DNA from: a virus
IMG/VR virus record: IMGVR_UViG_3300018059_000002
Location: 1-54,094 of that record
DNA: 54,094 nucleotides
Direction: 5' to 3' (one strand)
The notes under the pieces were generated by a model. That model worked only from the letters and a program-made list of their open reading frames with translations, was not told the origin of the DNA and did no database searches. A program made the translations under genes and the position numbers. Every line of letters begins with the position of its first letter. The first letter of the stretch is position 1. Shown here piece after piece: positions 1,250-54,094 of the stretch.

Positions 1250-1299
1250 CCTTTCGCTTACAGCATCTCTACACAGAACGCAACCCGAGGCTTACGAAT

Positions 1300-16835: not shown

Positions 16836-19237
16836 AAAAGTTTTACGGTTTTATTGGTTGTTTGTTGTTTAGCGTTGCGGCATTCGGTGCAACGTTTAAT
16901 TTATTTTCACCGGCTAGTGGCGTACTCAAAGGCAATCCTGCGACATACGTAACAACATCTGCAACATCTACTGATGTTAAATCTCTATGGTCCGGCACGT
17001 GCGACAACACCACGTACTTACGCGGTGATGGTAGTTGTCAAACGCCGCCCGGTACCGGAGGGGGTACCGTTAACAGTGTGGCCCTTAGCGCGCCTTCGAT
17101 ATTCAGCGTGTCAGGTTCACCAGTTACGACAACAGGAACGCTCGGTCTAACGTTTGCAGGGGGCCAGACTGCAAACCAATTCCTTGCCACACCTGATGGT
17201 GTTGCGGGCGCAGTCGCGCTTAGGTCGATGGTGGCGGCAGATGTCCCAAGTTTAGATCTTGTTACCAAGACGACTACCACTCTCACAGGGCTATTGAAAG
17301 GCACGGGGAGCGGCGCTCCCAGCGCGTACACCGGTACCAGTTGTACAAATCAATTTCCTCGCAGCATTAATGTGAGCGGCGCAGCAACGTGCGCCAGCGT
17401 AGATGTAGCTCTTGACATCACAGGTATTACGCCGGCAACGAACGGCGGTACAGGAAGCGGGTTTACCGCATTTTCTGGCCCGGCCGCGTCGACCAAAACC
17501 TTTATCTTGCCTAATGCGTCAAGCACTATTCTCACCAGTAATGCGGCGGTCACTGTAGCGCAAGGCGGCACAGGTGTTGCTACGTTGACGGGCATTGCGA
17601 AAGGTAATGGCCCGTCGGCCTTTACGACCGCAGTCTCAGGCGATGTGACGACGTTGTGGGGCGGCACGTGCGACGGCACGACTTACTTGCGTGGTGATGG
17701 TAGTTGTCAAACGCCGCCTACGGGCGGATCGGGAGCTAACCCGAGCGCAACAATCGGGTTAACGGCAGTCAACGGTGCGGCCATCACGTTTATGCGTAGT
17801 GACGGCGCCCCGGCTTTGAGCCAGAGCATTACGCCAACGTGGACGGGCGTGCACGCGTGGACTAGATCCACCACAGGACAGACCCTAACAGGCACAAACT
17901 CAAACGCTGCTGCTAATACTTGGTCTGAGTGGGTAAGCACAAACAGCAGTGGGCACGGCCTACATTTAACACATACGTCGGCAGCGTCAAACGCATCCTT
18001 TATCCCCGGCGCACCGGCTTCAGAGGCGGGTCTGATATACACGGACGCTGCGGTGCCCATGGTGCTTGGTACTAGCAACACCAGCCGTGTGCAAATTGGT
18101 GCGGCAGGCAACGTCACTATCAATGCGCCGAGTAGCGGTGTGGCTTTAGCTATTCCATCTGTAGGTATGACAGTTAACGGCGCGACTATCGCAACGGCTG
18201 ATGGCATTGCTGGAAGGCTGCTGATTGGAGACGGGACCGCAACTAACACGGCGTTGCGAATTAACTCTGGGTCTGCAACTGTTCTCAGCATTGACGCCGT
18301 GTTAAGTAATAGTAGCGCCTCAGAAAAAATACTTGCTTTCCAGGACAATGGTGGGGCAACAACGTTCGGCGGAGTTATTACAGCCAAAGCCATTAATAAC
18401 GCGATACTGATGTCTGGTGCGACTACTAACAACCAATACTTACGTTCCACTACAACCGGTGCTGACAGCATCTTCGGCTCAGACAGCAGCTCAGGCGCGT
18501 CTATATTTAGCGGCTCCCCTGCTTATGCAACGATGCTCGGAACGACTGGGGCTACATCGGTAGTAATCGGCACTAACAGCGCGAAGCGTGTTGAGGTTAC
18601 CAGCGGTGGAGCAGTAACCATCGCAGCCGCCAGTGCAGCGAGATCGTTGCAGGTAAGCGGCGCGGCGAATCAGTACACACAATCGATAACGGCTAGCAGC
18701 ACCGCAAGTCAATCTTTTGGGTTATTAATTGATGCCGGTACGAATGCTTCCGACGTTGCGCTTAATGTGCGCAACCAAGCTGCCACGCTGCAAAACTTCA
18801 CGGTCACAGGTGTTGGCGCAATCGCCGTAAACAATGGTTCATATGGCACAGCCGGGCAAGTTCTGACTTCCGGAGGTTCGACTGCTGCCGCTACGTGGAC
18901 GAGCCCTGCCGCAACCACCATATCTGGTGGGTCTATTGCGTCTAACGGTAGCGGAAGCTGTTCTCTCACCACTAACGCTACCGTGGGGCTCGCCTCATGC
19001 TCGGTCAGCTCTACGGTTATGACTGTGACTTTCTCGAATACTGCCGCTCATTTTTGGGTGTGCTCGGCGTCAAACGAAAGTTCCAGTGCCGCGTATATCG
19101 TTAATACGGGCCGCGTTGGAACGACCACTGCAACTATACGCTCGTGGAATTTAACGTCGACAGGCCCTATCACGTGGAGCACGGTTGACCCTTCAACAAC
19201 AGCCATTACATACCAGATAACTTGTCAGCCTGTTTAA
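16832..19237 (+). CDS. Large tail fibre-like protein with hydrophobic N-terminus
   Basis: Start trimmed to the ATG at 16832 (ATGA overlap), giving 801 aa rich in Gly/Thr/Ala/Ser. GTAGQVLTSGGSTAAATW is a common fibre motif. The N-terminus MKKFYGFIGCLLFSVAAFGA looks like a signal peptide. Confidence 0.6.
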   Translation: MKKFYGFIGCLLFSVAAFGATFNLFSPASGVLKGNPATYVTTSATSTDVKSLWSGTCDNTTYLRGDGSCQTPPGTGGGTVNSVALSAPSIFSVSGSPVTTTGTLGLTFAGGQTANQFLATPDGVAGAVALRSMVAADVPSLDLVTKTTTTLTGLLKGTGSGAPSAYTGTSCTNQFPRSINVSGAATCASVDVALDITGITPATNGGTGSGFTAFSGPAASTKTFILPNASSTILTSNAAVTVAQGGTGVATLTGIAKGNGPSAFTTAVSGDVTTLWGGTCDGTTYLRGDGSCQTPPTGGSGANPSATIGLTAVNGAAITFMRSDGAPALSQSITPTWTGVHAWTRSTTGQTLTGTNSNAAANTWSEWVSTNSSGHGLHLTHTSAASNASFIPGAPASEAGLIYTDAAVPMVLGTSNTSRVQIGAAGNVTINAPSSGVALAIPSVGMTVNGATIATADGIAGRLLIGDGTATNTALRINSGSATVLSIDAVLSNSSASEKILAFQDNGGATTFGGVITAKAINNAILMSGATTNNQYLRSTTTGADSIFGSDSSSGASIFSGSPAYATMLGTTGATSVVIGTNSAKRVEVTSGGAVTIAAASAARSLQVSGAANQYTQSITASSTASQSFGLLIDAGTNASDVALNVRNQAATLQNFTVTGVGAIAVNNGSYGTAGQVLTSGGSTAAATWTSPAATTISGGSIASNGSGSCSLTTNATVGLASCSVSSTVMTVTFSNTAAHFWVCSASNESSSAAYIVNTGRVGTTTATIRSWNLTSTGPITWSTVDPSTTAITYQITCQPV
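17024..17049 (+). repeat. 26-nt direct repeat, copy 1 (ggtgatggtagttgtcaaacgccgcc)
   Basis: Identical 26-mer at 17693-17718, in frame. It encodes GDGSCQTPP within the repeated LW-x-GTCD-x-TTYLRGDGSCQTPP module. Confidence 0.9.
17693..17718 (+). repeat. 26-nt direct repeat, copy 2
   Basis: Identical to 17024-17049, 669 nt downstream, in the same reading frame. Confidence 0.9.
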
Positions 19238-22401: not shown

Positions 22402-23867
22402 TATGCGGCCTCACGAGCGGTGATGCGCTCGTCCATCAAAAACAATGACGCCTTGGCGCGCGTTGCTGCAACGTAACATAAGTTGCGTTCTTGTTGTCGC
22501 TGCCAGTCTAATCTAACCCACGGGGCCGGACACTGCGACGCATTCAGCCAGAATACGCGGTCGCCCTCCAAGCCTTTTGCTTTGTGGATCGTGGCTAGGG
22601 TGACGGCCGCAGCGGTATCTGAAAATAAGGATTCGATTAAACAACATAGCGCCGGCACGGTTCTGCTGTTTTCATCAAGCGCATCAATCAACGCAAGGAT
22701 GCAATCGCGTTTGTCGACAATTGACTCTGCTTTAGAATCTTGTTTTTTAGCAATTGCTTTTTCGTGTTCGCGCGCACTCCATTGAAACAATTTTTCCGTT
22801 AGCCCGTCGATACCTTTCCCATTTAAACGTTTGATCATGGCGATAAGACCCGCGCCAATTTCACGACCCATAATAACCGCGGGTACGCGCAGTCTGATCA
22901 ACTGGTACACCAAAGTTACAAGCGGTTTAGTTGTGCGACACACGACAAGATCACCATTCGTGAACGTACTCGCATTCCATTTCTGGCCAATGTCTTTCAC
23001 TTCACCGGCAAGTGCGTTAGGCGCAGCTTCAATGTGGGAGACCCATTTACGTACGTAAGTAACCACACTTGTCGGGCAACGGTACGACACCGTCAGCGGT
23101 AACTCTACGCAACCGAACTCGTCAGCGATTAGCTGCATTGAATTTGAATCAGCCCCGCGAAAGCCGTAGATCGCTTGTGCTGGATCACCCACGGCTAACA
23201 ATCGGCTGTGCGGTTTCATAATCTTGCGAATGATCGCACGTTGTATGGCGTTAGTGTCTTGAGCTTCGTCTACAAAAACGTTATCGAATTTCGGTAAACT
23301 GATGCCTTCACGCACTGCTATGTAAAGCATATCGTCGAAATCGACAAGTGGCGATTCGTTCGACCATGTGAGCAGCTCGCTAGCTAACTCGGCTGCACGT
23401 TCGTTGTTGGCGAATTCGCTATCTAGCTCCAAGTCGTGGTGTTCGATTAGATCAAGCCACGCATTAGGTGTGTTCGCTAGTAAACAACCAATGCCGGCGT
23501 TACGGCCGAGGCCCACGAGGCGACAGATAAACGCCCCGTACATTTTTAAATCATTACCTTGCAAATTGTCTTCGCAAAGATTCCGCAGTTTGTTGCTGCA
23601 AACGTCGCGCTGTTCTTTGAATTTCATCACATCGCCAAATGACAATGAGTGAAACGTACGGCCGTTGACGCCGCGCCCCTTCATGGCTGCCGCAATCGAC
23701 TTGTTGAACGCTAAGACTACGTGCGAGCCCTTCGTACGCTTTACAGCTTCCTCTACCGTGGTGGACTTGCCGGAACCTGCAACGGCCTTGATAATGGCGT
23801 TACCGGTGCCGGATTCAACGAAATTGAAGATCGCTTGTTGGTAAGACGACCACGTGCGGGTGTTCAT
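22401..23867 (-). CDS. UvrD/PcrA-like superfamily 1 DNA helicase
   Basis: Walker A is AVAGSGKSTTV and Walker B is VFVDEAQDTN; other motifs are VSYRCP and TIHKAKGLEGDRVF. Start trimmed to ATG 23867 (GGAG 9 nt upstream), because the upstream 11 codons overlap promoter cassette E1. Confidence 0.85.
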   Translation of the reverse strand: MNTRTWSSYQQAIFNFVESGTGNAIIKAVAGSGKSTTVEEAVKRTKGSHVVLAFNKSIAAAMKGRGVNGRTFHSLSFGDVMKFKEQRDVCSNKLRNLCEDNLQGNDLKMYGAFICRLVGLGRNAGIGCLLANTPNAWLDLIEHHDLELDSEFANNERAAELASELLTWSNESPLVDFDDMLYIAVREGISLPKFDNVFVDEAQDTNAIQRAIIRKIMKPHSRLLAVGDPAQAIYGFRGADSNSMQLIADEFGCVELPLTVSYRCPTSVVTYVRKWVSHIEAAPNALAGEVKDIGQKWNASTFTNGDLVVCRTTKPLVTLVYQLIRLRVPAVIMGREIGAGLIAMIKRLNGKGIDGLTEKLFQWSAREHEKAIAKKQDSKAESIVDKRDCILALIDALDENSRTVPALCCLIESLFSDTAAAVTLATIHKAKGLEGDRVFWLNASQCPAPWVRLDWQRQQERNLCYVAATRAKASLFLMDERITAREAA

Positions 23868-28814: not shown

Positions 28815-29901
28815 TTAAAACGGTATGTCATCGTCAAATCGCGGGTCATATGGATACATCGGTTTAGTCGCCGGCAGCAAATGCGCCGGTAGCTTACCGC
28901 CTACAATCCCCTCAAAGTCGCACCATGTGACCGGCCGAAATCATGGCCGCGTCAATCCACCCTTTTTGCCGGAAGTCTTCGTAGCGCGCCCCCTGTGGGT
29001 TTGCCATGCGGTAACCGGCCGGTGCGCCTAAGGGATCGGGAGCCGGTGCCGCTGCCTGAGGAACTGCCGGAACCGGTGCGGGTGACGCCCCTGCCACAGG
29101 TGGCGCTAAGAAGCCGGCGTGCGGTGTCACGGGCACAGGGGCAGCGCCGGGGGCCATCGTGCCGGCGGTCGGAGTAGGCGACGGCTGCGTATAACCGCCT
29201 CCAGGCACGCTAGGCGACGGCGTAGCGCTAGGGGCCACCGTAGAAGACGGGAACGCGGCAGAGCCTACGGGGGCGGCTGTTACGCCGGCAGGCAGCGCCG
29301 ATCGACCGAACCCCACGGCGCGAGGGTCGGGGCCACTCACGATTTCCTTACCCGGCGCACGGAAAGCAACCATGTTGTGGTTGAGGTAAACGCCCGGTTT
29401 CTGCGTTTGGCCGTTGCCTTGCACAGTGCCGAACACTTCCACCCAAAAACCGGGTTTAACTAGGCCCGGTTGCAGCATCGGGTTGCCCTGTTCATCGAAC
29501 ACCTTAACGGGGAACGATGAACTAAATTTGAGAATCCAGCAACCGAGGTGCCCTTCGCGATCACAATTTTTGCGGCCGTTCTGATTCGGGATTTGACTAT
29601 CGCCGTCCTCGATCTTCCACGCGAAATTAGGGCTTGCGGTTTGACCTTGCGGCCATGCGGCATTTGCAATCGCGAGAATCGTTTGACCCCACGGCTCCAC
29701 CCACCACTGCGCTGCGGTTTTTTGAATCGCTAGCGCGAAGTAATAGCGGACGGTTGGCTTGCCAGCGTTCGGGCCTTCACGGGTGACCAGTGGTTTGCCT
29801 TGGGCGTCTTTATCTTGCGGTTCGTACAAATCGCCCTGAACGATACGGCCGACTGGAAATAGAATCGAATTTTGATTTTGCTGTGTAGCGGGTGCGTTCA
29901 T
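28815..29901 (-). CDS. SSB isoform carrying a DDDIPF tail, if a +1 shift occurs at CTT_TGA (28917-28912)
   Basis: The +1 frame is open from 28940 to the TAA at 28817-28815. It encodes EGIVGGKLPAHLLPATKPMYPYDPRFDDDIPF, and DDDIPF is the canonical bacterial SSB C-terminal tip. Confidence 0.45.
28912..29901 (-). CDS. Single-stranded DNA-binding protein (DUF2815-like), 0-frame product
   Basis: 329 aa. The N-terminal domain (FPVGRIVQGDLYEPQ...YYFALAI...FWVEVFG) resembles DUF2815 phage SSBs. It has a Pro/Ala-rich linker and ends at CTT TGA. Confidence 0.7.
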   Translation of the reverse strand: MNAPATQQNQNSILFPVGRIVQGDLYEPQDKDAQGKPLVTREGPNAGKPTVRYYFALAIQKTAAQWWVEPWGQTILAIANAAWPQGQTASPNFAWKIEDGDSQIPNQNGRKNCDREGHLGCWILKFSSSFPVKVFDEQGNPMLQPGLVKPGFWVEVFGTVQGNGQTQKPGVYLNHNMVAFRAPGKEIVSGPDPRAVGFGRSALPAGVTAAPVGSAAFPSSTVAPSATPSPSVPGGGYTQPSPTPTAGTMAPGAAPVPVTPHAGFLAPPVAGASPAPVPAVPQAAAPAPDPLGAPAGYRMANPQGARYEDFRQKGWIDAAMISAGHMVRL

Positions 29902-31100
29902 TTTGAAAATACCTTGCGTGCAGTGATGGAATTATCGCGCGTCAGCTTCAACGCGGCGGCGGGTCTATGAGCGTAGTGTTTCATCGTTTCCGCGTCAACG
30001 CCGAATTGTATCGCTTGCGTGGGTGTTACAAGTGAATCCTTTTTAGTTTGTGGCTTCCGTAAATCGATGCCGATAAGATCGCCCAAACCGACGACCTCGT
30101 CAACATTAACATCGTCGTAGTATGTTAACCGGGATTGACCGGGGGTCATGTGGAAAAATGAGATGGGTTTACCTTGTCGCATTAGCGCCTCAGCTTGTGC
30201 TGCTAGGCCCGTCTCACGTGCTTCAAGGCGTTTAATGATGTTTTGTACCATCGCTAACTCGGTGCCGATTGCTTCGGGTGGCATCTCTACGATTTCGCCG
30301 GTTGTAGCGAAATCAATAAAAACGCCGGTCGCGTATTGTAACGTTTTACAGACGTGGCGCGCCCTGCAATCAACGCATGAATCATTGGTTGTTGCAACTG
30401 GATCGGAGCCAAGCGCCGCATGCGCAGCATTTGATGCGATGTTCAAATAGTTACGCAGCACATATGCCTGAACGCGCCACCACCTAACAGGGCCGTCGGC
30501 TCGATAGCATCGCGGTTGCACGATACACATCTCTACCCACAAATTAAGGTCTGCGTCATCCAGGTTTAACCGATCCATTACACCTGATGTGTATGAGGTT
30601 GTCTGATAGTTGCCGAACACTTCCACGTAGCGGTGTCCGTATTTGTATTCACCCACACGCAACAGTTTGATTAGGCCGCGCGCAAATAGATCGGGCGATA
30701 TTTCAGGCGGGCAGACTTTATGCGCGAAGCGCGCATCGGGAAAAAATCGCCATGCATCCGGTGTTCCGGCGCAGTGTTCGGGATGTACACGCTTGATAGA
30801 TACGGCGTCCTCAAGGCGCAATGACGAATGGAAACCGCCTATTGCTTCGGCGTACATCGTTGCGCCTGCTACCATATCAACATCCACGGTCCACTGGCGG
30901 CCCCGATACTCCATCTTAAATCCGACAGGCAACGTATGGCCGTACCCGCGAGCGTAATTCAACGCGACCATGTGCGCGAATGTTCCCTCGGCTTCTTCTT
31001 CGGTCTCAGGTAACGGCGGCACTTGTTCTTGCAATTGCACGGAAGCGGGACACTTCACAGTAAGATCAAGAGATGACGGGGCAATACGCGCGTGGCTCAT
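29898..31100 (-). CDS. PD-(D/E)XK / Cas4-like exonuclease (DUF2800-like)
   Basis: Start trimmed to ATG 31100, just after the upstream TAA. The C-terminal half has a Cys cluster (CVDCRARHVC). It sits at the usual DUF2800 position next to DUF2815 and PolA. Confidence 0.6.
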   Translation of the reverse strand: MSHARIAPSSLDLTVKCPASVQLQEQVPPLPETEEEAEGTFAHMVALNYARGYGHTLPVGFKMEYRGRQWTVDVDMVAGATMYAEAIGGFHSSLRLEDAVSIKRVHPEHCAGTPDAWRFFPDARFAHKVCPPEISPDLFARGLIKLLRVGEYKYGHRYVEVFGNYQTTSYTSGVMDRLNLDDADLNLWVEMCIVQPRCYRADGPVRWWRVQAYVLRNYLNIASNAAHAALGSDPVATTNDSCVDCRARHVCKTLQYATGVFIDFATTGEIVEMPPEAIGTELAMVQNIIKRLEARETGLAAQAEALMRQGKPISFFHMTPGQSRLTYYDDVNVDEVVGLGDLIGIDLRKPQTKKDSLVTPTQAIQFGVDAETMKHYAHRPAAALKLTRDNSITARKVFSK

Positions 31101-31101
31101 T

Positions 31102-31635
31102 TTAAAATTTCCAAAGTTGGGGCTTGGAACCTTTTGGTAAATATAAGGGGTGCTTCGGGACACCGCCTTTTGTTAATCCAAGCGTGTGTAATTTTTCAGG
31201 CGCAACTGTGCTTAAGTGATGTTGCACGCGGTCGGCAAGCTCTTTATGAGCGATGGTGCCCCACGTGCAAATAATTAATGAGGCTTCAAGTGCATGACGA
31301 ATTAAAAACCCCTCGTTGTGGTCAATGATCAATTGTCCCGGTATACGCGTTTGTTTTGGGTCTGTACTCCGATAGGGGTTCACATTTACAAAAACCATTT
31401 TCGTATAACCCCACGCAGATGTGAACCCCCATCCGCGTCGCTCTGTTGCATCATCTATTTTAGCGTCAGTAAGCGACGGGTTGGCACACACCCACAGGAC
31501 AAAATCAGCATTAAGATGCGCAACAGGTTTGTCAAACAACGTTGCGCAACGGACACACGGGCAATCTAATCCTGCCTGACGGGTCAAATCATAACGATAT
31601 GACCCGCACGGGCTTATTGTTGCATCCCGTATCAT
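31102..31635 (-). CDS. DUF1643-like protein
   Basis: 177 aa. SPCGSYRYDLTR...NPSLTDA...DDATERR...ICTWGT...GGVPKHPLYL matches the DUF1643 pattern as I recall it. Confidence 0.65.
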   Translation of the reverse strand: MIRDATISPCGSYRYDLTRQAGLDCPCVRCATLFDKPVAHLNADFVLWVCANPSLTDAKIDDATERRGWGFTSAWGYTKMVFVNVNPYRSTDPKQTRIPGQLIIDHNEGFLIRHALEASLIICTWGTIAHKELADRVQHHLSTVAPEKLHTLGLTKGGVPKHPLYLPKGSKPQLWKF

Positions 31636-32514: not shown

Positions 32515-32557
32515 TTGACGTGGACTGACAGTATCGTCAGACTGACGACCTTGTCAA
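32515..32557. promoter_or_regulatory. Divergent control region with five YTGACR hexamers / two CTGAC-N6-GTCAR dyads
   Basis: The hexamers are TTGACG (32515), CTGACA (32525), CGTCAG (32535), CTGACG (32542) and TGTCAA (32552). A minus-strand promoter reads TTGACA (32557-32552), 18-nt spacer, TACTGT (32533-32528). Confidence 0.5.
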
Positions 32558-32574
32558 CTAGGAGGCTTAAAAAA

Positions 32575-35320: not shown

Positions 35321-35620
35321 ATGACTGTACCTAATAAAACCTCTAAACCCGCCATTCTCAGCGCAGCAATTAAGCTCGCAAGTAAGGTTGGGCTTTTTCA
35401 ATTTTCGCGGGTTGACGTTGCCGCTGAGGCGAATGTAGGCGAATCGACTGTGTCGTATCATTTCGGCACGATGCCCGAGCTACGCACCGCAATCGTGAAG
35501 CATGCAGTCGAGCACGAAATTATGAAAATTCTAGCCGATGCTCGCGCGGGGCGCGAATCCGTGGGCGTGCCTATGAGCGCGACGCTAAGGAAGAAAATCG
35601 CGAAATTCATCGCAGAATAA
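35321..35620 (+). CDS. Stand-alone TetR-N-type HTH DNA-binding protein
   Basis: 99 aa. ILSAAIKLASKVGLFQFSRVDVAAEANVGESTVSYHFGTMPELRTAI matches the TetR_N HTH. At 99 aa it is too short to carry a ligand-binding domain. Confidence 0.6.
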   Translation: MTVPNKTSKPAILSAAIKLASKVGLFQFSRVDVAAEANVGESTVSYHFGTMPELRTAIVKHAVEHEIMKILADARAGRESVGVPMSATLRKKIAKFIAE

Positions 35621-35687: not shown

Positions 35688-38186
35688 ATGGCGGACTCTA
35701 GCGACATTCGCGGAGCGTTGTCAAACGTTCCCGCGTTCATCCTCTACCGACTGGTGCCTACAGTTGATGCCAAGGGCTACCCCAAGCTCGACAAAGTGCC
35801 CACAAGTCCGAACGGCGGCTACGATATTAACCCGCACGATTCGGCTGAATGGATGTTACCGGCGGACGCTCAGTTATGGGCTGACGTATTTAATGCGCAA
35901 CTGTTACCGCAAGGCGTCAGCGGATACGGTACCGGCGTCATCATCTCCGAAGACATCGTCTTGCCGAACGGCCGGCGCTTGTTCGCACTCGATATTGACA
36001 AATGCCGCGACGGCAACCAATGGGCACCGCATGCGCGCGCCTTCGTGGATAAGTTGTCGGGTGGCGGTGTCGAAGTCAGTGTAAGCGGTAATGGGTTACA
36101 CGTGTACGGCACATATGCCGGCGAGCGGCCGGACCACGGCACGCGTAATAAAACCTACGGCCTTGAGTTATACACACGGTTGCGTTTCATCGCTTGCACA
36201 GGCTTAGGCGCTGCCGGTGATCCTCTCAAAGACTTGACGCGCGAACTGCACGCGCTAGTCGAATATTTCCCCGCCCACGATGTCGAAGATTACGACGGCG
36301 AGTTGACGACCAAACCTGTTGTGGAGTGGTCCGGTCCTGACGATGACGACGAGCTACTGCGCAGAGCAATGAGGTCTCACAGCGGTGCAAGCGTCTTTGG
36401 TGGCAAGGCTGCCTTCGCCGATTTATGGAATGCTAACGTCGCTGTACTTGCTCGCGTGTTTCCGCCGCAACAACACGGACAATATGACGCTAGCGCCGCC
36501 GATCAAGCTTTGTGTAATCATTTAGCATTCTGGACCGGCAACCACGGCGAACGCATGTTGCGCCTGTTGTATCGATCGGCACTCGTGCGTAACAAGTGGG
36601 AGCGGCCTGGATATCTCCTCGGAACCGTACAGCGCGCTTGCGGTTCGCAGAAACAATGGTATAAAGATTCCCGGAGCAACGTGTCTCCGGGTCAGATGGC
36701 TTACGTTGCAGCCGCATGTCTGACCCTCGGCACCTCCGATGCGGTGACGCCGGCAACGCCTAGTGCGACCGTCGCACCCTCGGAGGGCGTCGTTCCTCAA
36801 TCCACGCCGTACGATCCTAGTAAGCCGATTCCGCCGGGCACGCGTCCGCCTATCGGCGATTATCTTACCGAAGCGCAACAGGTTGCTTTATTTGATGGCT
36901 GCGTCTATGTGCAAGATATCCATCAAGCCATAATGCCTCAAGGGCACACACTCAGCTCAGAGAAATTCGACGCAGAGTTCAGCGGGTACACATTCGCAGT
37001 GAAACCTGATGGGCAACAGCCTGCTAAACGCGCATGGGAAGCGTTTGTGTTTTCAGAAATCCACGCTTTCCCGAAAGTCAAAGGCATGTACTTCGATCCG
37101 CGCCAACCATCGCGCAAGATCATAGAGCGCGAGGGATCAACGCTAATCAATTCGTACGTCCCATCGGTTATCATTCGTAAATCAGGTGATGTATCGCCGT
37201 TCCTAACACACCTGTACAAACTCTTACCGCTTGGAAATGACGCACAAATTCTGCTGGCTTATTTCGCTGCCTGCGTTCAACACGCCGGCGATAAATTCCA
37301 ATGGTGGCCGTTGATCCAGGGTGTAGAAGGCAATGGCAAAACTACGCTAAGTCACTTATTGCAGTACGCCGTTGGGCGTCGGTACACCCATTGGCCTAAA
37401 GCCGCCGAGCTAGGCTCAAAGTTTAATAGCGCATTCTACGGTAAGCTGCTGATATGTTGTGAAGACGTTTATATTTCCGAATCGCGCGGCTCATTGTGGG
37501 AAGCCTTAAAACCCATGATCACCGGCATAGAGTTGGAAATCGAAGGCAAGGGCGTAGACAAGGTTACCCGAGAGGTTTGCTTTAACGGCGTGATGAACTC
37601 AAATCACAAAAACGCCATTCGCAAAACGGCTAACGATCGACGAGTAGGGCCGTTCTTCTGTGCTCAACAATCAAAAGCCGATCTGATGCGCGACGGGTTG
37701 ACCAAAGATTATTTTATTGCGCTGAAAGCGTGGCGCGAAGGTGAAGGCCGCGAGATTGTCGCCGATTATTTGATGCGCTACGAAATCCCGGACGAACTGA
37801 ACCCAGCACGTCGTTGCATCGTTTGCCCTGACACCACGGCCACACGGGAAGCGATTAGCGCCGGCCTTGGTGCAGCCGAGCAGGAAGTGATTGAGGCTAT
37901 TTCACAGGGTACAGCAGGCTTCCGCGGCGGTTGGGTGTCATCAAGCGCCCTGGACCGTCTGCTCGCCAACATCGGCAAAGGGTCCAGCATACCCCGCAAC
38001 AAGCGCCGGGAGATGTTAGACACCCTCGGCTATACGCCACATCCGGGCTTACCAGACGGCCGCGCTACGGTCAACGACACCGACGGCACCCGACCCTACC
38101 TGTATGTGCTTCAGACAACACCCGGAGCCTCTGAGCGTAACCCACACGCAATTATGAGCCTGTATCAAGCGGCACAGAAAGGTTAG
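35688..38186 (+). CDS. Primase-polymerase / SF3 helicase fusion (P4 alpha / D5-like)
   Basis: 832 aa. The N-terminus LFALDIDKCRDG...VSVSGNGLHVYG is prim-pol-like. The C-terminus has Walker A (GVEGNGKTTL) and Walker B (LLICCEDV). Confidence 0.8.
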   Translation: MADSSDIRGALSNVPAFILYRLVPTVDAKGYPKLDKVPTSPNGGYDINPHDSAEWMLPADAQLWADVFNAQLLPQGVSGYGTGVIISEDIVLPNGRRLFALDIDKCRDGNQWAPHARAFVDKLSGGGVEVSVSGNGLHVYGTYAGERPDHGTRNKTYGLELYTRLRFIACTGLGAAGDPLKDLTRELHALVEYFPAHDVEDYDGELTTKPVVEWSGPDDDDELLRRAMRSHSGASVFGGKAAFADLWNANVAVLARVFPPQQHGQYDASAADQALCNHLAFWTGNHGERMLRLLYRSALVRNKWERPGYLLGTVQRACGSQKQWYKDSRSNVSPGQMAYVAAACLTLGTSDAVTPATPSATVAPSEGVVPQSTPYDPSKPIPPGTRPPIGDYLTEAQQVALFDGCVYVQDIHQAIMPQGHTLSSEKFDAEFSGYTFAVKPDGQQPAKRAWEAFVFSEIHAFPKVKGMYFDPRQPSRKIIEREGSTLINSYVPSVIIRKSGDVSPFLTHLYKLLPLGNDAQILLAYFAACVQHAGDKFQWWPLIQGVEGNGKTTLSHLLQYAVGRRYTHWPKAAELGSKFNSAFYGKLLICCEDVYISESRGSLWEALKPMITGIELEIEGKGVDKVTREVCFNGVMNSNHKNAIRKTANDRRVGPFFCAQQSKADLMRDGLTKDYFIALKAWREGEGREIVADYLMRYEIPDELNPARRCIVCPDTTATREAISAGLGAAEQEVIEAISQGTAGFRGGWVSSSALDRLLANIGKGSSIPRNKRREMLDTLGYTPHPGLPDGRATVNDTDGTRPYLYVLQTTPGASERNPHAIMSLYQAAQKG

Positions 38187-42536: not shown

Positions 42537-43040
42537 TTATAATTTGTCGATTGTTGCACCTCCTTTTTCGTTAATAAAAATTCCGACATTTTCCATATCT
42601 CGTTGGCTTTTCTTTACTCTCTTACGCGCCGCAATCGCCAAGTTAGCTACCCGTTTTAAATGGCCGGAGAGTATTAATGCTTGATCGGGGTCAAGCGCTA
42701 TGTGGCGTACAGGAGCCTGCCAATCAATCAGCACTTGCATTGCTCTACTCACACCGACTTGATATTTGAGTTCGGGCGTTGCTGACAGTTCCGATGGCTT
42801 TGCAGATGTCGTATCATTGACTATTGCTTTTAATCCGCCATCTACGCCGGGTACACCTTCGTGATACAATTTGTCGCGAGCGCGTTGGGCTTGCTCCGGG
42901 GTGATTTCAGATAACCTCAATCCTTGTGCTTTAAGTAATGCGACACGATGCATTGGCTTCTTAGGGCACATTGGACACCACGAATCGGAGAATTCACCGC
43001 AATCGGTGTGTTTGATAGGACACGCATAGATAATCATCAT
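42537..43040 (-). CDS. Cys-rich protein translationally coupled to the sigma factor (anti-sigma candidate)
   Basis: 167 aa. Its ATG overlaps the sigma gene stop (ATGA). The N-terminus is CPIKHTDCGEFSDSWCPMCP. Function inferred only from the gene pairing. Confidence 0.3.
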   Translation of the reverse strand: MMIIYACPIKHTDCGEFSDSWCPMCPKKPMHRVALLKAQGLRLSEITPEQAQRARDKLYHEGVPGVDGGLKAIVNDTTSAKPSELSATPELKYQVGVSRAMQVLIDWQAPVRHIALDPDQALILSGHLKRVANLAIAARKRVKKSQRDMENVGIFINEKGGATIDKL

Positions 43041-43534
43041 TTGGCCTTTTTAAGAGTCTTGTGTACTTCACGTAATCCGAGCGCGATATGATGTTCTACC
43101 GTCTTTTCGCTTAAATGGTACTTCTTAGCGAGCTGTCGATAGGAAGCGCCAAAAAAGACACGTTGCGAAAACACCGCTTTACATCGTGGAGGTAGTAAAT
43201 TAATTGCTTTACGCAGCGCTTCGGTTTGTTCTAAACGGATCAACAATTCATCGGCCGGCTCGTTGGCCGCTAACATTTCCGCAAAGTCATCGCAACGATC
43301 AAACTGTACTAACCTATCGTGTCGACAGGAATCCAAAGCCATGCGTTTCGCAACTGTGAATAGGAAAGCCCGAGGTATTTCTAACTTATCCATATTCACT
43401 AGCGTTTTTATAAATGCCTCTTGTGCAATGTCGCTGGCAGTTTCATCAGAATGCACGAAACGCTTGATGTAACGACACAAGTCATTGTAGCTACTGACGA
43501 ACAAGTTAGTTACTGAGTCTTTGATAGCCATCAC
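43037..43534 (-). CDS. ECF-type (FecI-like) sigma-70 family factor
   Basis: 165 aa. Region 2 reads DIAQEAFIKTL...PRAFLFTVAKRMALDSCRHDR and region 4 reads LPPRCKAVFSQRVFFGASYRQLAKKYHLSEKTVEHHIALGLREV. Confidence 0.75.
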   Translation of the reverse strand: MMAIKDSVTNLFVSSYNDLCRYIKRFVHSDETASDIAQEAFIKTLVNMDKLEIPRAFLFTVAKRMALDSCRHDRLVQFDRCDDFAEMLAANEPADELLIRLEQTEALRKAINLLPPRCKAVFSQRVFFGASYRQLAKKYHLSEKTVEHHIALGLREVHKTLKKAK

Positions 43535-45351: not shown

Positions 45352-45693
45352 TTATGCGTGCGGCTGACCATCACCAGGGTGATCCGCTTCCGATACAGGC
45401 GGCTTACGTTTGGTTCCTTTGGAAGGTGGCGTTGATTCAGGTGGCGTTGATTCAGGTGGCGTTGATTCACTGCTTAACACAACATCTTCAACGTGTGAAC
45501 TTTCGTCGACAATGATGCTGCTTGTAGGCTCGCACATCAGCGCGGTACGTTCGGCTTCAACAGCAGCATTCTGCACCTCTTGTACGGCAGCCTCTAGGCG
45601 TTCAATCGCCTGCGAGCCTAACATAGCCGGTTTGGTATAACGTTGAATCAAGGCCAGCAACGCCGCACGTGCGGCTTGTATTCGTTCGCTCAT
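45352..45693 (-). CDS. Hypothetical protein with ESTPP x3 tandem repeat
   Basis: 113-aa ORF with AAGGAG upstream. It contains the 15-bp x 3 repeat in frame. Confidence 0.55.
   Translation of the reverse strand: MSERIQAARAALLALIQRYTKPAMLGSQAIERLEAAVQEVQNAAVEAERTALMCEPTSSIIVDESSHVEDVVLSSESTPPESTPPESTPPSKGTKRKPPVSEADHPGDGQPHA
45425..45469. repeat. Perfect tandem repeat, 15 bp x 3 (ggtggcgttgattca)
   Basis: Read directly: the copies are at 45425-45439, 45440-45454 and 45455-45469. They encode ESTPP three times on the minus strand. Confidence 0.95.
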
Positions 45694-45765: not shown

Positions 45766-46095
45766 TCAATAAGAAGGTGCCCATTGATCGCGCGGCCGTT
45801 CGGTTACAGGCGTCCAGCAGTATAAGCTGTCAGGATTCCACGGTAATGACATGTCGCGGATGTAGTAGCGCGTGTGGTGATTAAAATCATGCGAGCTACC
45901 ATCAAGCATTTGTGCACGTATAAATGCTAACGCCGTCTTACGTAGATGAAAGCCCCTTTTCGATAGAGGCACCGCAACGCCTCGGCTGTTAACCCAGTAC
46001 ACACCGTAAGGACGTTTTAAACGCATCCCAGGCGATTGTTCAAGGCCGACAGGCTCTTCGGTCGGCTTAAAGAATCCTATATCCCCGCTGCTCAT
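45766..46095 (-). CDS. Hypothetical protein
   Basis: 109-aa ORF whose ATG overlaps the upstream stop by 4 nt. Confidence 0.55.
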   Translation of the reverse strand: MSSGDIGFFKPTEEPVGLEQSPGMRLKRPYGVYWVNSRGVAVPLSKRGFHLRKTALAFIRAQMLDGSSHDFNHHTRYYIRDMSLPWNPDSLYCWTPVTERPRDQWAPSY

Positions 46096-46400
46096 TGTTG
46101 CCCCCGGTTGTGCTTGTAAAACGCTTCAATGCATTGTTGCAAGTAGGTTTCTAATGCGCCGAATTCGGCTTGTGTACTGTCGGAAGGCACCCACAACTTA
46201 GGGCATATGTATGCTGACAAGTCTTTGCGGAAGGGGTGCCGACGCGGTAGATACCGATTCATGCACGCTACGCAGCCACCGCCCGACACGTAGCGTTGAT
46301 CGACATGCCCTTGTTTGCAAGGCTTACCTGTAAAGAACTTTATGCGGCCCTGCGTGTAAGCCTGTTCGCGGGTGATTAGCTCGTGTGCTTGTGTGGTCAT
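46092..46400 (-). CDS. Small Cys-containing (Zn-finger-like) protein, first gene of the leftward arm
   Basis: 102 aa. FFTGKPCKQGHVDQRYVSGGGCVAC is a motif I recall from many proteobacterial phage ORFs of unknown function. Confidence 0.5.
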   Translation of the reverse strand: MTTQAHELITREQAYTQGRIKFFTGKPCKQGHVDQRYVSGGGCVACMNRYLPRRHPFRKDLSAYICPKLWVPSDSTQAEFGALETYLQQCIEAFYKHNRGQQ

Positions 46401-46430
46401 GGCGCGCTCATTAGTAGGTTCAATATCTAA

Positions 46431-46459
46431 ATTGTCGTTTATTTACACGTGATAGTCAA
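46431..46459 (-). promoter_or_regulatory. Candidate leftward early promoter
   Basis: Minus strand: TTGACT (46459-46454), a 17-nt spacer, then GACAAT (46436-46431). It lies about 30 nt upstream of ATG 46400. Confidence 0.4.
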
Positions 46460-46482
46460 TCCGTATACGTTAGAGCCGGGGC

Positions 46483-46681
46483 CGCCGTCCCGACTATAGG
46501 CGTTTTTCATCCCCTTTTGGCTGTCCTATAAATGAATAGTTAGATATCCTTTTAACTTGCATCTTGTGTCTTCTTCTTCTACTAAATAAATATAAATTCG
46601 CATCAAGAGTAAACATCTAAATAACTATTCATTTATAGGACAGCCAAAAGGGGATGAAAAACGCCTATAGTCGGGACGGCG
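46483..46681. repeat. Perfect 60-bp inverted repeat (46483-46542 / 46622-46681) around a 79-bp AT-rich core
   Basis: I checked all 60 pairs by hand and found no mismatch. The core (46543-46621) is far more AT-rich than the rest of the genome and contains TTGCAT, 17 nt, TACTAA (46557-46585, + strand). Confidence 0.95.
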
Positions 46682-46790
46682 CGCAGGATGTTCTACGCTA
46701 ACGGTAGGATTCGTTTCGTATGCTTGATGTGGGCGCGACGTAGCGCAGCGCTAACGCTAGAAACTAATAAAAACTAAATGGTGCAATATG

Positions 46791-46820
46791 TTGCGCTAGG
46801 CATTGTGGGTGTTGTAGGGT
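46791..46820 (+). promoter_or_regulatory. Candidate late promoter immediately upstream of terS
   Basis: TTGCGC (46791-46796), an 18-nt spacer, TAGGGT (46815-46820), then 7 nt to ATG 46828. The site at 51118-51147 has the same layout. Confidence 0.3.
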
Positions 46821-46827
46821 TAGACCC

Positions 46828-47631
46828 ATGTCAACCCCAAGGCAACAACTTGCAAACGTAAACCCCGACGATGTGGACAACATCGAAGGTCCAACGCTGA
46901 CCGCTAAACAAGATCGGTTCGCACAAGTGTGGGCGCGTACAGATAGCAAATCGGCAGCCTATCGTGAGGTGTACGCACACCCCAATACGTTGCCTAATAC
47001 CATCTGGGTGCAAGCCTCACGCATCGCCGATCTTCCGCAGGTTAAGGCCCGATATCATGTGCTGCACGAGGAAGCCGCAAACGAAACGTTGTTGTCGCTG
47101 CGTGAGGCATTGCAGTGGCAGATCGACATCGCAACCGCGGACCCTAACGAGCTGGTGCGCGTAGTGGCTTACAACTGCCGCCACTGCCACGGTATTAACT
47201 ATGAGTATCAATGGAAAGATGAGGACGAGTACGTTAACGCGTGTGTTGAGACAATAGACAACAAACTCAAAAAGACGCCAAGCGAGGCTGGCGGTTACGG
47301 CTTTGTTGGTAATCTTCCTCCGACACCCACGTGTCCACACTGCTACGGCCAAGGCATTGAGCACACATTGATTGCAGACACTACGAAGCTCACAGGGAAA
47401 GCGCGCAAGTTATATGCGGGTGCGGAGCAAGATCGATGGGGCGTGATTAAAATCAAGATGCACGATCAAGATGCAGCGTGGGATAAAGTGTTACGCATGC
47501 GCGGCGCGTATAACGACAAGCTCGACTTGCGCACCCCTCAACAACGAGCGGCTGAGACTGCGCGGCAGAAGTTGCCTGATGACATTACAATTGAAGATGC
47601 AAGCAAGGCTTACATCGCATTGTTAGGCTGA
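46828..47631 (+). CDS. terS: Terminase small subunit
   Basis: 267 aa. LTAKQDRFAQVWARTDSKSAAYREVY...ASRIADLPQVKARY fits the Terminase_2-type N-terminal HTH. It lies directly upstream of terL. Confidence 0.7.
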   Translation: MSTPRQQLANVNPDDVDNIEGPTLTAKQDRFAQVWARTDSKSAAYREVYAHPNTLPNTIWVQASRIADLPQVKARYHVLHEEAANETLLSLREALQWQIDIATADPNELVRVVAYNCRHCHGINYEYQWKDEDEYVNACVETIDNKLKKTPSEAGGYGFVGNLPPTPTCPHCYGQGIEHTLIADTTKLTGKARKLYAGAEQDRWGVIKIKMHDQDAAWDKVLRMRGAYNDKLDLRTPQQRAAETARQKLPDDITIEDASKAYIALLG

Positions 47632-51153: not shown

Positions 51154-51375
51154 ATGAGAAGTGTTGTACATGTACCACCCGGTTTCCAAGACCAGCACAA
51201 ACCCCATATAACAAAGGTTGACGGCCTTTGGTGGGCTATCTGGCCGAATCATACTACGATGCCTAGCGATGACGATTTAGAACGCATATATCGCCCTTAC
51301 ACGAACAAGTTGAACGGCATCACCATGCCGCAACCCAAGTCACTGCTGTATGACCCGCACCCGGTGATTCAATGA
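51154..51375 (+). CDS. Hypothetical protein
   Basis: 73-aa ORF whose end overlaps the GIY-YIG ATG (ATGA). Confidence 0.5.
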   Translation: MRSVVHVPPGFQDQHKPHITKVDGLWWAIWPNHTTMPSDDDLERIYRPYTNKLNGITMPQPKSLLYDPHPVIQ

Positions 51376-51941
51376 AAGCAGGCGTTTACATCATCACTTG
51401 CTTAGTTAATCGAAACGTTTATGTAGGATCAAGTAAGAACTACAAAACGCGACTTTCTAACCATTTTAGTAGGCTGCGTGCGGGTGTCCACGCTAACCCG
51501 AAGCTGCAAGCATCGTTTGATAAATATGGGGCGGAGCGTTTTAACAGTTGTGTGCTGCTGATTTGTAAACCTGAAAATTTGTTATGGTTTGAGCAGCGCG
51601 CTATAAATGTGCTGCGGCCCTCTTTTAATATCGCTAAACACGCGGACGCCCCAAATCGAGGGCGGGTGTTTTCTGCGGAAGTAAGGGCTAAGGTGTCTGC
51701 ACGTTTAAAAGGCAATACCTATACGCTCGGATATAAAGCAAGCGCCGAAACTAAAGCTAAGCTGTCAGCTTTGCGTCGCGGTAAAAAACTGCCGGCACGA
51801 GGTGCACTTAGCATCGAACACCGTGCGATAATTTCCCAAACTCATAAAGGCCGGAAACATTCGACGATTCACCGTGCGCGAGTTAGTGAGGCTAAACGCA
51901 AATGGTGGGCAGATAAAAAGGCGGCGGCATGCGCAAGTTAA
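51372..51941 (+). CDS. GIY-YIG homing endonuclease with NUMOD-like repeats
   Basis: GVYIITCLVNRNVYVGSS...R...H is the GIY-x10-YVG motif. The C-terminal repeats are S-x-E-x-R/K-A-K-x-S...G (FSAEVRAKVSARLKG and ASAETKAKLSALRRG). Confidence 0.85.
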   Translation: MKAGVYIITCLVNRNVYVGSSKNYKTRLSNHFSRLRAGVHANPKLQASFDKYGAERFNSCVLLICKPENLLWFEQRAINVLRPSFNIAKHADAPNRGRVFSAEVRAKVSARLKGNTYTLGYKASAETKAKLSALRRGKKLPARGALSIEHRAIISQTHKGRKHSTIHRARVSEAKRKWWADKKAAACAS

Positions 51942-53329
51942 GGGCTTCAACTAGAAAACCTATTGTTTGCGAGCCTGTATGGCCGAATCAGGGGGTTAAA
52001 AACTGGTACGACACAAAGCTCGTTGAAATGATCAACGAAGCCGAGCGCGGCTTGCGTAGCGCCCTCGCCTATCTGTGGCGCGATATCCCGCCGCTATTCA
52101 CGCACGACGAAGCGCTCGACGTTGAAGCCGACGCGGCCGGCGTCATGTACGTTTGCGGCAATCGTATCTTGCTAATGCGCCGCACTGACGGGTTAGGCTG
52201 GGCATTTCCCGGCGGCAGCGTTGAAGAGAACGAGACCGCAGAAGCCGGCGCACGTCGTGAGGCATTCGAGGAAACATTGCACCCCTGTAATGGTTTGCTT
52301 GAGTTCGTCAGTATGTGGCGGCGCGACAAGTTCCACTTCGCTACATTCACAACAGAAGTTCCCGAAGAATTCACGCCAACGCTGAATAGCGAGCACGATG
52401 CTTTTGTGTGGGTAACTCCCTACGACGCAATGGACATGGAGTTGCACGCCGGATTACCCTTTACACTTGGCGAGTATGCGCGACGCCTTGCGCATGATGC
52501 CCCCAGCTCTACAAAGGCGCTGCAAGCGTTGCTCGCGAAGTGGAGCAAGCAAGTAATTAAACGGTTTGACCTTGCGTCGTTTGACCTTGCGAGTAACTTC
52601 GCATCTCGTAGCGTGATCGCTACACAAACAGCCATGATGTCGCAGCTAAAAAACGCAGGCTTTACCGTGGCGTTTAAACCTACGATGAAAAGCATGGAAG
52701 CATACAAGGCCGTGACCGCTGAAAACGTTGCGTTGATCAAATCGATTCCGCGCAAGTGGCATGAGCAGGTAGAACAGAAAGTTTGGAGCGCTGTACGCAA
52801 CGGCTCCGACTTGAGCAAGCTATCGGTTGAGCTTCGCAAGGCGTACGGTTCTACAACTAAGCGCGCGGCGTTGATCGCTCGTGATCAAAACGCTAAGGCG
52901 AAAGCTACGATTGAACGGGTGCGCCAACAAGAATTAGGCATCACGCGCGGTATTTGGATGCACTCACATGCCGGCAAAGAACCGCGGCCTACCCACGTGG
53001 TGATGAATGGCGAGCAGTACAACTTGAATCAAGGCATGTACGATAGTGACGAGCAAGCTTATGTGCACCCCGGTGAGTTGATTTATTGTCGATGTTCCAT
53101 GCGTCCTGTGATCGAAGGCGCGCAAGAATACGCGGATACCGACGACGAGCCGACAAACGTTATGCTGGGCGCTGCTCTGCGCAATGCGGAGCAAAACGTA
53201 GGAAAGCCGCGCGCTGCTGAGATGCGCGTCATACTGCAAGAGTTGTATGATGTGCGCAAACGTTGGTCTGGCGCTGACGAAATGCAGCTACGCACCGAGG
53301 TCATGGGTTTTTTGAACAGTGGGGTTTAA
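51929..53329 (+). CDS. MuF/SPP1 gp7-like head morphogenesis protein with an embedded Nudix hydrolase domain
   Basis: The Nudix box GGSVEENETAEAGARREAFEETL lies at nt 52211-52279. The MuF-like core is IARDQNAKAKA...THVVMNGEQYNL...GELIYCRCSMRPVI (aa 315-395). Confidence 0.7.
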   Translation: MRKLRASTRKPIVCEPVWPNQGVKNWYDTKLVEMINEAERGLRSALAYLWRDIPPLFTHDEALDVEADAAGVMYVCGNRILLMRRTDGLGWAFPGGSVEENETAEAGARREAFEETLHPCNGLLEFVSMWRRDKFHFATFTTEVPEEFTPTLNSEHDAFVWVTPYDAMDMELHAGLPFTLGEYARRLAHDAPSSTKALQALLAKWSKQVIKRFDLASFDLASNFASRSVIATQTAMMSQLKNAGFTVAFKPTMKSMEAYKAVTAENVALIKSIPRKWHEQVEQKVWSAVRNGSDLSKLSVELRKAYGSTTKRAALIARDQNAKAKATIERVRQQELGITRGIWMHSHAGKEPRPTHVVMNGEQYNLNQGMYDSDEQAYVHPGELIYCRCSMRPVIEGAQEYADTDDEPTNVMLGAALRNAEQNVGKPRAAEMRVILQELYDVRKRWSGADEMQLRTEVMGFLNSGV

Positions 53330-53786: not shown

Positions 53787-53980
53787 ACCTGCACGACCGC
53801 GCCGAGTTCGAGAAGCAACTCACGCGATACCTAAGCGCACACAACACGCTGCGCGAGCATAACGCGCGGGTCGACCTTGTTAACTGGGTGGCCAAATACG
53901 CCGATGAACAAGTTGCGGCGACTGTGCGCCTTGCGTGGGGCGTGCCTACATCAATCGAAGACAGTTTAGGCGGCCCCTAG
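53783..53980 (+). CDS. Hypothetical protein
   Basis: Start trimmed to ATG 53783 (ATGA overlap; MNLHDRAEFEKQL...). The stop TAG lies inside the terminal repeat. Confidence 0.45.
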   Translation: MNLHDRAEFEKQLTRYLSAHNTLREHNARVDLVNWVAKYADEQVAATVRLAWGVPTSIEDSLGGP

Positions 53981-54094
53981 CATTCACCATAACGGCGCGC
54001 TACACTCGCGCCCCATGCTTGCCTTTGATCGCTCAGTATTAGATCGTGATGTGATTGCGCTGGATCGTGCAAGCGCGCGTACGTTTGACGCTGA
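53975..54094. repeat. Direct terminal repeat, right copy (identical to 1..120)
   Basis: Same 120 nt as 1-120. It contains the stop of ORF 53783..53980 and the ATG (54015, equivalent to 41) of the scaffold-like gene. Confidence 0.95.

Follow-up and report, generated by a model that had tools for sequence, protein, structure and literature searches.

A clade-conserved quasi-palindrome whose AT-rich core has changed orientation, a possible replication origin in PrimPol-encoding myoviruses

How a phage that replicates with a primase-polymerase (PrimPol) and an associated helicase opens its duplex genome has been considered for NrS-1, in which an 8-nt primase recognition sequence occurs exactly twice, once per strand, and is proposed to define the origin; the problem stated there is that the helicase needs single-stranded DNA for entry (PMC7102993, PMC8718748). 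In a different setting, hairpin loops of plastid genomes flip without a recombinase, giving small inversions of the 'flip-flop' kind (PMC6824564), and putative viral invertons have been proposed only recently (PMC13501310). Here we analyse a 54,094-nt stretch of viral DNA, the whole of IMG/VR record IMGVR_UViG_3300018059_000002 (hereafter the window), in which a long inverted repeat encloses an AT-rich core at positions 46,483 to 46,681, between two divergent arms of genes. We find that this element persists, with jointly evolving repeat arms and a core of variable orientation, across a clade of uncultured phages, and we discuss tentatively whether it may be the origin at which an NrS-1-type PrimPol-helicase starts replication.

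An earlier, sequence-only reading of this DNA had described a perfect 60-bp inverted repeat around a strikingly AT-rich core, and in these respects it was right. All 60 of 60 arm positions are complementary (100%), with 79 nt between the arms, and its coordinates are correct (Table 1). Shuffled sequence yielded no match equal to the arm pair, and any extension of the repeat past 60 bp is not significant, as 153 of 1000 shuffles did equally well. The arm occurs only twice in the window in a search tolerating 3 mismatches, and the next-best inverted repeats there are far shorter or poorer (39 nt at 72%, 24 nt at 92%). The GC content of the core is 27.8%, as opposed to 52.6% for the genome; the lowest-GC 79-nt window of the genome (25.3%) overlaps the core, and only 0.12% of the 79-nt windows in the genome are as AT-rich. 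Folded as single-stranded DNA, the whole element reaches −77 kcal/mol (z = −16). Its position at the divergence of the two gene arms, also noted earlier, is equally correct. The element sits in the largest non-coding gap of the genome (46401–46827, 427 nt), 146 nt upstream of terS. To its left, small minus-strand genes run leftward from 46400 down to 38392, and to its right terS, terL and the portal gene open the structural arm.

Searching with TerS led to contigs of 50–55 kb with the same gene order, in which the corresponding gap could be compared. The longest counterparts are found in L098 (TerS 82% identical to that of the window), with 62-nt arms pairing at 58 of 62 positions around a 65-nt spacer, in L099/L100 (76%), with 55-nt arms (50/55) and a 71-nt spacer, and in L102/L103 (68%), with 52-nt arms (48/52) and a 52-nt spacer. 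Near-perfect arms of 20 nt flank a 106-nt spacer in L006 (85% over a partial TerS), and near-perfect arms of 17 nt flank a 27-nt spacer in L004/L010 (66%). L107 (62%) has perfect 15-nt arms, a 142-nt spacer and two further copies of the same 14-nt motif, so that in the same gap (1135–1435 of L107, Logan SRR15377977) four copies of TTGGACGTTTGRAA, forming two inverted pairs in an iteron-like layout, replace the long arms. Finally, L109 (58%) has no arms and a gap of only 135 nt. Three further Logan contigs (L101, L104 and L105) break about 30 nt inside the right arm, and contigs of two additional lineages (L097 and L106) start with the arm motif, consistent with a repeat at that place. The arms share a short conserved motif, which reads GGGGATGAAAAAC in the window, GGGGTTTCAAAAGAC in L099 and GGGTTTCTAAAGAC in L004; the copy in the right arm, AAGGGGATGAAAAACGCC, recurs on the side of terS in most relatives, even where a long left arm is lacking. 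No comparable long repeat lies upstream of terS in any of 74 more distant Terminase_2 loci (best score ≤14, compared to 40–60 here), which makes the long repeat a feature of this clade. An IMG/VR search for further relatives with the conserved core block returned chance matches only.

The two arms evolve together. Within one genome they are 91–100% complementary, and between genomes they are 50–66% identical. When five elements are aligned, 38 of the 67 predicted pairs persist although both of their sides have changed, and one-sided or G-U states are almost nil. Judging from this pattern, complementarity is kept at the DNA level, through either selection or gene conversion, and the strict Watson-Crick exchange of pairs with almost no G-U intermediates suggests a role at the DNA rather than the RNA level. 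The sequence-only reading had envisaged a duplex of the transcribed arms, and structure at the RNA level found no support: single arms of the window and of five relatives fold no better than shuffles (z from −1.3 to +1.5). A structured leader of the nut/put type was ruled out by the same non-significant folding, and Rfam returned only sub-threshold matches to generic miRNA-precursor hairpins. The element is a real quasi-palindrome at the DNA level, retained by a clade of uncultured myoviruses of roughly 54 kb.

The core, by comparison, has not kept one orientation. Aligned to the core of L098, the window core scores 30 as reverse complement and 14 directly (shuffles 13.4 ± 2.1, maximum 22), and aligned to that of L099 it scores 22 and 12, respectively, the shuffle maximum of 21 rendering the latter result marginal. 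Since the core aligns to those of L098 and L099 only as reverse complement, the window carries the minority orientation, and the alignments indicate, clearly for L098 and marginally for L099, that core orientation changed in evolution. Both orientations apparently also occur in one sample. In ENA ERZ27267795, contig L007 has the core in the (+) orientation, and contig L001 (k141_1312021), which encodes a TerS identical to that of the window, has it in the (−) orientation beside the same right flank, with 0 differences over 6,950 nt; the window core aligns to this version (L001v2) with a reverse-complement score of 140. L001 and L007 end on one shared 141-mer, equal in length to the assembler k, and diverge at the next base, which points to a real branch in the assembly graph. 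The L001 variant in addition lacks 3 nt of a GAA run and differs by four substitutions within the inner part of its right arm, and hence the two orientations are not simple isomers. Positions 1–262 of L001 fold back: 33 nt of reverse-complemented right flank are followed by an arm, the inverted core, the variant arm and the right flank, an apparent 93-nt repeat at 96%. Three readings are compatible with this end: an inversion isomer of a second haplotype that arose by crossover within the outermost 37 nt of the arms, a variant with arms lengthened to 93 nt, or a head-to-head junction of two right flanks, produced either by fold-back replication or as a chimera of the library. Under all three readings the variation is concentrated in the element. 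Core flipping and the concerted evolution of the arms lay beyond what the sequence-only reading could see. Beyond the element, the sole difference seen between L007 and the window in 3.6 kb is that L007 has one unit fewer of a 15-nt perfect tandem repeat (45424–45469, 3.1 copies in the window), which encodes STPPE repeats in an open reading frame (ORF) at 45352–45693 on the minus strand and is thus polymorphic in copy number.

Independent assemblies, and relatives that carry the element, exclude an assembly artefact, which the sequence-only reading had named as what would undo its proposal. L007, a MEGAHIT contig, is identical to the window from the left flank through the whole element to 33 nt into the right flank. 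The Logan contig L002 starts 30 nt inside the right arm, as expected of a k = 31 assembler that meets a real inverted repeat, and rightward of the element it agrees with the window at every base; L007 and L002 come from different assemblers, though possibly from the same reads as the window. The idea of a miniature foreign insertion fared no better. Searching databases and relatives for the arm, as had been advised, gave a mixed answer, in that the arm sequence itself is absent from the databases searched and a diverged counterpart is present at the same site in relatives. Exact partial-arm patterns found nothing in IMG/VR or in 185,579 GTDB reference genomes, the element region had no blastn match in 72,556 plasmids or in INPHARED phages, and there was neither a phage DNA match in INPHARED nor a TerS relative, in host or prophage, among the 185,579 reference genomes. 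No target-site duplication was seen, the flanks outside the left arm (ending in GCCGGGGC, ...GGGGC) and outside the right arm (beginning with CGCAGGAT, CGCAG...) sharing no direct repeat of at least 2 nt. Terminal inverted repeats around a short AT-rich core do bear a superficial likeness to a miniature inverted-repeat transposable element (MITE), and inverted repeats do disturb assemblers, as the fold-back of L001 illustrates. Nevertheless, a MITE or other foreign insertion, or a fold-back assembly chimera, is scarcely credible for an element that is single-copy in the genome, lacks database matches and a target-site duplication, is represented in relatives by diverged homologous repeats rather than by empty sites, and recurs with identical sequence from another assembler.

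Given these properties, we consider the element more likely a DNA-level site than a promoter switch. Our favoured reading, to which we assign a probability of about 0.38, is by analogy with NrS-1 that it may be the origin used by an NrS-1-type PrimPol-helicase; of the roles that the sequence-only reading had listed, origin and recombination site are the ones the evidence now favours, and the foreign insertion is not supported. The anatomy is origin-like: the lowest-GC segment of the genome lies in its largest non-coding gap, with mirror-image arms on either side, and this gap separates a conserved, outward-facing early promoter to the left from the terS operon to the right. The genome encodes an 832-aa PrimPol that matches the NrS-1 polymerase structures 6K9A, 6A9W and 6K9C and that would be the initiator using the element. 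According to this model, the AT-rich core would act as a DNA-unwinding element (DUE) that melts under negative supercoiling between the two divergent promoters. Once it is open, the arms of each strand could pair with each other and hold the 79-nt core as single-stranded loops, which would let the PrimPol-helicase enter and prime on either strand; in that case the element would be a bidirectional origin with one mirror-image recognition or loading arm per strand. Homologous recombination or template switching between arms only 79 bp apart would occasionally flip the core and, in doing so, overwrite one arm with the sequence of the other. The recombination could involve a gp2.5-like single-stranded DNA-binding and annealing protein and a DUF2800-family protein, the latter of which we take to be a nuclease; both are encoded in the window and might act on the 60-bp arms. 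As no recombinase was found among the 45 ORFs scanned, arm-to-arm general recombination or replication template switching is the likely cause of the flip, and such events would give perfect identity, fast joint divergence and two orientations without a dedicated invertase. The locus itself may be an ancient unwinding or origin region, whose flanking sites expanded into long mirror arms in this clade.

Isolated phages with the same replication module lend this some context. JD001, Scuro and SppYZU01 encode a PrimPol about 40% identical to that of the window, and each has, beside its terminase genes, a homologous divergent gap of about 400 nt whose centre contains 14–22% GC and is the genome minimum in two of the three (Scuro and SppYZU01). 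Inverted GGGGTA-type motifs lie on both sides of this centre, with no long arms. The G-tract motif that the window shares with the three phages is at best a weak, architectural resemblance. Our literature search on the origins or termini of JD001-like phages found nothing. The divergent junction at 32.5 kb of the window, considered as an alternative origin, was rejected, being compact, operator-rich and not AT-rich.

Several observations weigh against the origin. The assignment is built from architecture and analogy. The element lies about 8 kb from the PrimPol gene, while many phage origins are in or beside replication genes, and a cruciform with 79-nt loops is costly in duplex DNA. The NrS-1 motif fails as an arm signal, as TTTGGYTR is not enriched (12 copies compared to 9 expected), and the shared G-tract motif is enriched weakly in the window and in JD001 (P about 0.02) and not significantly in Scuro and SppYZU01. 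With arms of merely 15–20 nt in L004, L006 and L107 and none in L109, long arms appear dispensable for whatever the locus does. Gene conversion alone could keep the arms alike without selection for pairing, and the variant within the sample is a single MEGAHIT contig end that folds back on the right flank, possibly a head-to-head junction or a chimera.

The proposed NrS-1 origin shares with the element the type of replicase (PrimPol, HBD and SF3 helicase), a definition by sequence that occurs once per strand, that is, as an inverted pair, and the need of the PrimPol-helicase for single-stranded entry. It differs in being marked by an 8-nt motif, TTTGGTTA, with neither a long repeat nor an AT-rich core described, whereas here 60-bp arms surround a 79-bp AT-rich core; the origin is a proposal in both phages. 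Origins that combine iterons with an AT-rich DUE, as in lambda and plasmids, resemble the element in having an AT-rich unwinding region, here a putative one, flanked by repeated motifs, and activation through nearby transcription or supercoiling is plausible for both, but the element has two long mirror-image arms instead of arrays of short direct iterons. As in rolling-circle plasmids with cruciform or hairpin origins, pairing within a strand would expose single-stranded DNA. Neither an iteron-binding initiator (of the O, Rep or DnaA type) nor an HUH nickase was identified.

As regards the flipping, the plastome loops (PMC6824564) are similar in that a short segment within an inverted repeat reorients repeatedly, has equal folding energy in both orientations and needs no dedicated recombinase. 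Their stems of about 9–30 bp and loops of a few to tens of nt lie mostly 3′ of genes and stabilise mRNA, whereas the element has a 60-bp stem and a 79-nt loop between divergent phage promoters. The terminal flip/flop hairpins of poxviruses and parvoviruses, together with the palindromic junctions of their concatemers (PMC8956199), also exist as two reverse-complement isomers, and the L001 end, with its order of reverse-complemented right flank, arm, core, arm and right flank, resembles a replicated hairpin end; the element, however, is internal, and the genome assembles as a circle through it with two different flanks. A protelomerase target (telRL) or hairpin telomere was rejected as well, in view of the 79-nt spacer and the circular contig; no protelomerase or resolvase family emerged from Pfam and PHROG scans, and a 620-aa ORF proved to be a DNA polymerase.

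The element had also been viewed as a source of transcripts leaving the core in both directions with the same 60-nt leader. Its hexamers do exist (TTGCAT at 46557, 17 nt, TACTAA on the plus strand), but as a promoter they match the consensus at 3/6 and 3/6 positions, fail the promoter scan, score below 5.4 bits in our matrix and are not conserved. A scan of 46000–47200 retained a single promoter-like site, the sigma-70-like TTGACT-17-GACAAT outside the left arm (Table 1), with equivalents in L098 and L099 (TTGACC-18-TACTAT) and in L102 (TTAACT-16-TACATT); by these signals, it is likely the early promoter of the leftward operon. With the strongest conserved promoter outside the left arm, the leftward operon would neither start in the core nor carry an arm as leader. 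Candidates within the core reach at most 6.7 bits and are poorly conserved. A conserved core block, TTTACTCTTG-N-TATAGA/TTTATT, resembles a −35/−10 pair and faces terS in L098, L099 and L001, and leftward in the window. Of the mini-ORFs pointed out in the arms, MKNAYSRDGAQDVLR on the plus strand and MKNAYSRDGGPGSNVYGLTITCK on the minus strand exist as described, yet they are conserved only with L098 and are absent from L099 and L102. Between the right arm and terS lies a cluster of five CGCTAR motifs where 0.68 are expected, including the palindrome TAGCGCAGCGCTA; relatives carry related ACGCTAG/TTGCA arrays at that position, and the cluster may represent binding sites for a regulator or for TerS, or the promoter region of the terS operon.

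These features allow other explanations. One is a programmed inverton, in which a promoter-bearing core inverts between the 60-bp repeats and sends transcription phase-variably to the early leftward or the terS/structural operon. Flanking inverted repeats are the hallmark of such systems, the 60/60 arms would qualify, both core orientations exist between lineages and apparently in one sample, and the promoter-like block turns with the core. As in fimS, the Bacteroides capsular polysaccharide (CPS) promoters or the Mu G and P1 C segments, inverted repeats bound a segment found in two orientations upstream of operons. Here, however, neither an invertase gene nor a convincing promoter within the segment was found: among 45 mid-size and large ORFs scanned against Pfam and/or PHROG there was no integrase, resolvase or invertase (Phage_integrase and Resolvase families) and no tyrosine or serine recombinase, the core candidates are weak and poorly conserved, and the strong conserved promoter lies outside the arms. 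Known invertase systems, moreover, have far shorter repeats and a far longer invertible segment. The two orientations further differ by the 3-nt indel and four substitutions, and some relatives lack long arms; on all these counts an inverton is decidedly unlikely. We regard as more speculative still a recombinase-independent flip-flop device of a lytic phage, whose arms would be kept so that the core inverts at appreciable frequency by general recombination; two isomers would always be present, differing in which gene arm receives the promoter or priming signal of the core, as a form of bet-hedging. A self-perpetuating palindrome without function, arising by fold-back or template switching at an AT-rich intergenic site, homogenised by gene conversion and tolerated in non-coding DNA, would fit arms that range from 0 to 62 nt among relatives and evolve fast in sequence, the L001 end, which extends the repeat 33 nt into the right flank in fold-back fashion, and the concentration of variation in the element, with none in the 6,950 flanking nt. 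It is nonetheless decidedly improbable, given that four or more lineages (68–82% TerS identity) keep long repeats at this site and given an arm motif conserved even in distant relatives; moreover, long inverted repeats are normally unstable and lost unless selected.

Two further possibilities assign the arms to proteins. The element could be a packaging (pac) region, in which TerS binds the mirror arms, and perhaps the CGCTAR array, around an AT-rich cleavage zone, comparable to the bipartite pac sites of P1 and SPP1. The short distance to terS, the motif array in between, a head module (Portal_3, Mu F-like) suggestive of headful packaging and the homologous AT-rich gaps adjoining terminase genes in JD001, Scuro and SppYZU01 agree with this. 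Against it, the distant Terminase_2-type terS loci (0/74) have no long upstream repeat, a symmetric site alone gives no packaging direction, and the contig ends about 30 nt inside an arm are the expected behaviour at k = 31, where the assembler breaks at the inverted repeat, and are thus not physical genome ends; we consider a pac site unlikely. We are similarly doubtful of a symmetric regulatory hub, where the arms would be mirror binding sites for a transcription factor or nucleoid protein at two divergent promoters, with no role for DNA secondary structure. Each arm does contain a GGGG-N3-4-AAAAGAC-like motif at similar distances upstream of the outward promoters; L004, which has no long left arm, has one copy of this motif, on the terS side, and L006 has it in both short arms, while L107 has its four copies of the 14-nt motif and no long arms. 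Yet binding sites of 10–20 bp need no near-perfect symmetry over 50–60 bp, strict pairwise covariation along the entire arm exceeds what a protein site requires, and both core flipping and extreme AT-richness would be left unexplained.

Table 1 Coordinates of the element, of associated features and genes in the window, and of homologous gap centres in isolated phages
Feature	Position	Strand	Description
Left arm	46483..46542	n/a	60 nt; basis: 60/60 complementarity and homologous counterparts in relatives, where both partners of a pair have changed
G-tract/A-tract motif, mirror copy	46500-46515		GGCGTTTTTCATCCCC; within left arm
Core	46543..46621	n/a	79 nt, AT-rich; candidate DNA-unwinding segment
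Right arm	46622..46681	n/a	60 nt; holds motif copy AAGGGGATGAAAAACGCC
Sigma-70-like leftward promoter (putative)	46431..46459	-	TTGACT-17-GACAAT, 11.6 bits; starts 24 nt outside left arm
CGCTAR motif cluster	46696..46799	n/a	5 copies vs 0.68 expected; between right arm and terS
First gene of leftward arm	46092..46400	-	102 aa, Cys-rich, zinc-ribbon-like, PHROG 1081; adjoins the element in relatives too
terS (Terminase_2)	46828..47631	+	First gene of rightward packaging and structural arm
NrS-1-type primase-polymerase + HBD + SF3 helicase	35688..38186	+	Pfam NrS1-1_pol-like_HBD, DUF5906; 832 aa
gp2.5-like single-stranded DNA-binding/annealing protein	28912-29901	-	Putative recombination function
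DUF2800 family protein	29898-31163	-	Putative recombination function
Homologous gap centre, JD001 (L110)	23040-23170		Unannotated in the record
Homologous gap centre, Scuro (L111)	12990-13110		Unannotated in the record
Homologous gap centre, SppYZU01 (L112)	1230-1330		Unannotated in the record

The remainder of the genome is that of a myovirus and is probably complete. Bases 1–120 of the window are repeated exactly at 53975–54094, and this 120-nt terminal direct repeat, an assembly overlap, indicates that the contig is a closed circle of 53,974 bp, which fits a complete genome. The structural genes resemble those of E217/Pam3/XM1-type myoviruses (cement protein, baseplate hub gp41, neck terminator, DUF2612, Mu F-like and Portal_3), and the replication module also comprises a UvrD-like helicase, a family-A-like DNA polymerase, a DEAD-box helicase and a small TetR-like protein. 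The gene of the latter (35321–35620) adjoins the PrimPol gene here and likewise in JD001, Scuro and SppYZU01. Palindromes of 16 bp (CTGACGAGGTCGTCAG and its variants) form a family with copies at 23907, 39276, 40473, 40858, 41704, 42343, 45016, 45265 and 51119, and also at 32515–32560. A TTTACA-like −35 and a TAAGAT −10 flank the copy at 45016, with a conserved CACTGAA after them, and other copies, which were partly checked, look similar; from this layout the palindromes look like a repeated promoter-operator module for minus-strand genes, and the TetR-like protein is a possible regulator of it. An ECF-type sigma factor (Sigma70_r2 and r4_2) is encoded at 43037–43534 on the minus strand and may drive the terS/structural operon. 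Elsewhere, a GIY-YIG/NUMOD3 homing-endonuclease-like gene (51372–51941, plus strand) is situated between the portal gene and a NUDIX-Mu F fusion gene (51929–53329), and an 806-aa tail-fibre-like ORF (16817–19237) contains a 77-nt internal direct repeat that is 81% identical between its copies (16973–17049 and 17642–17718).

Taken singly, the components are familiar: long inverted repeats, AT-rich origins and the flip-flop of loops are all known. What is new is their combination in a clade-conserved, concertedly evolving 50–60-bp repeat with a flipped AT-rich core, located at the early/structural divergence point of PrimPol myoviruses. The element thereby provides a natural case of a long inverted repeat in concerted evolution whose loop flips with no invertase found, a behaviour well known in plastomes and hardly documented in phages, and it would gain in interest should flipping turn out to be frequent and to serve a function. 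It also breaks or folds back short-read assemblies (L001, L002, L097, L101 and L104–L106), and inverton-calling pipelines would score it as a 'viral inverton', which is a caveat for such surveys. Phages with a PrimPol-helicase include the Klebsiella Jedunavirus group, isolated for phage-therapy work. If the origin reading is true, the element is a testable candidate for how these phages open duplex DNA, and an AT core melted by supercoiling and locked open by arm pairing would answer the problem raised for NrS-1.

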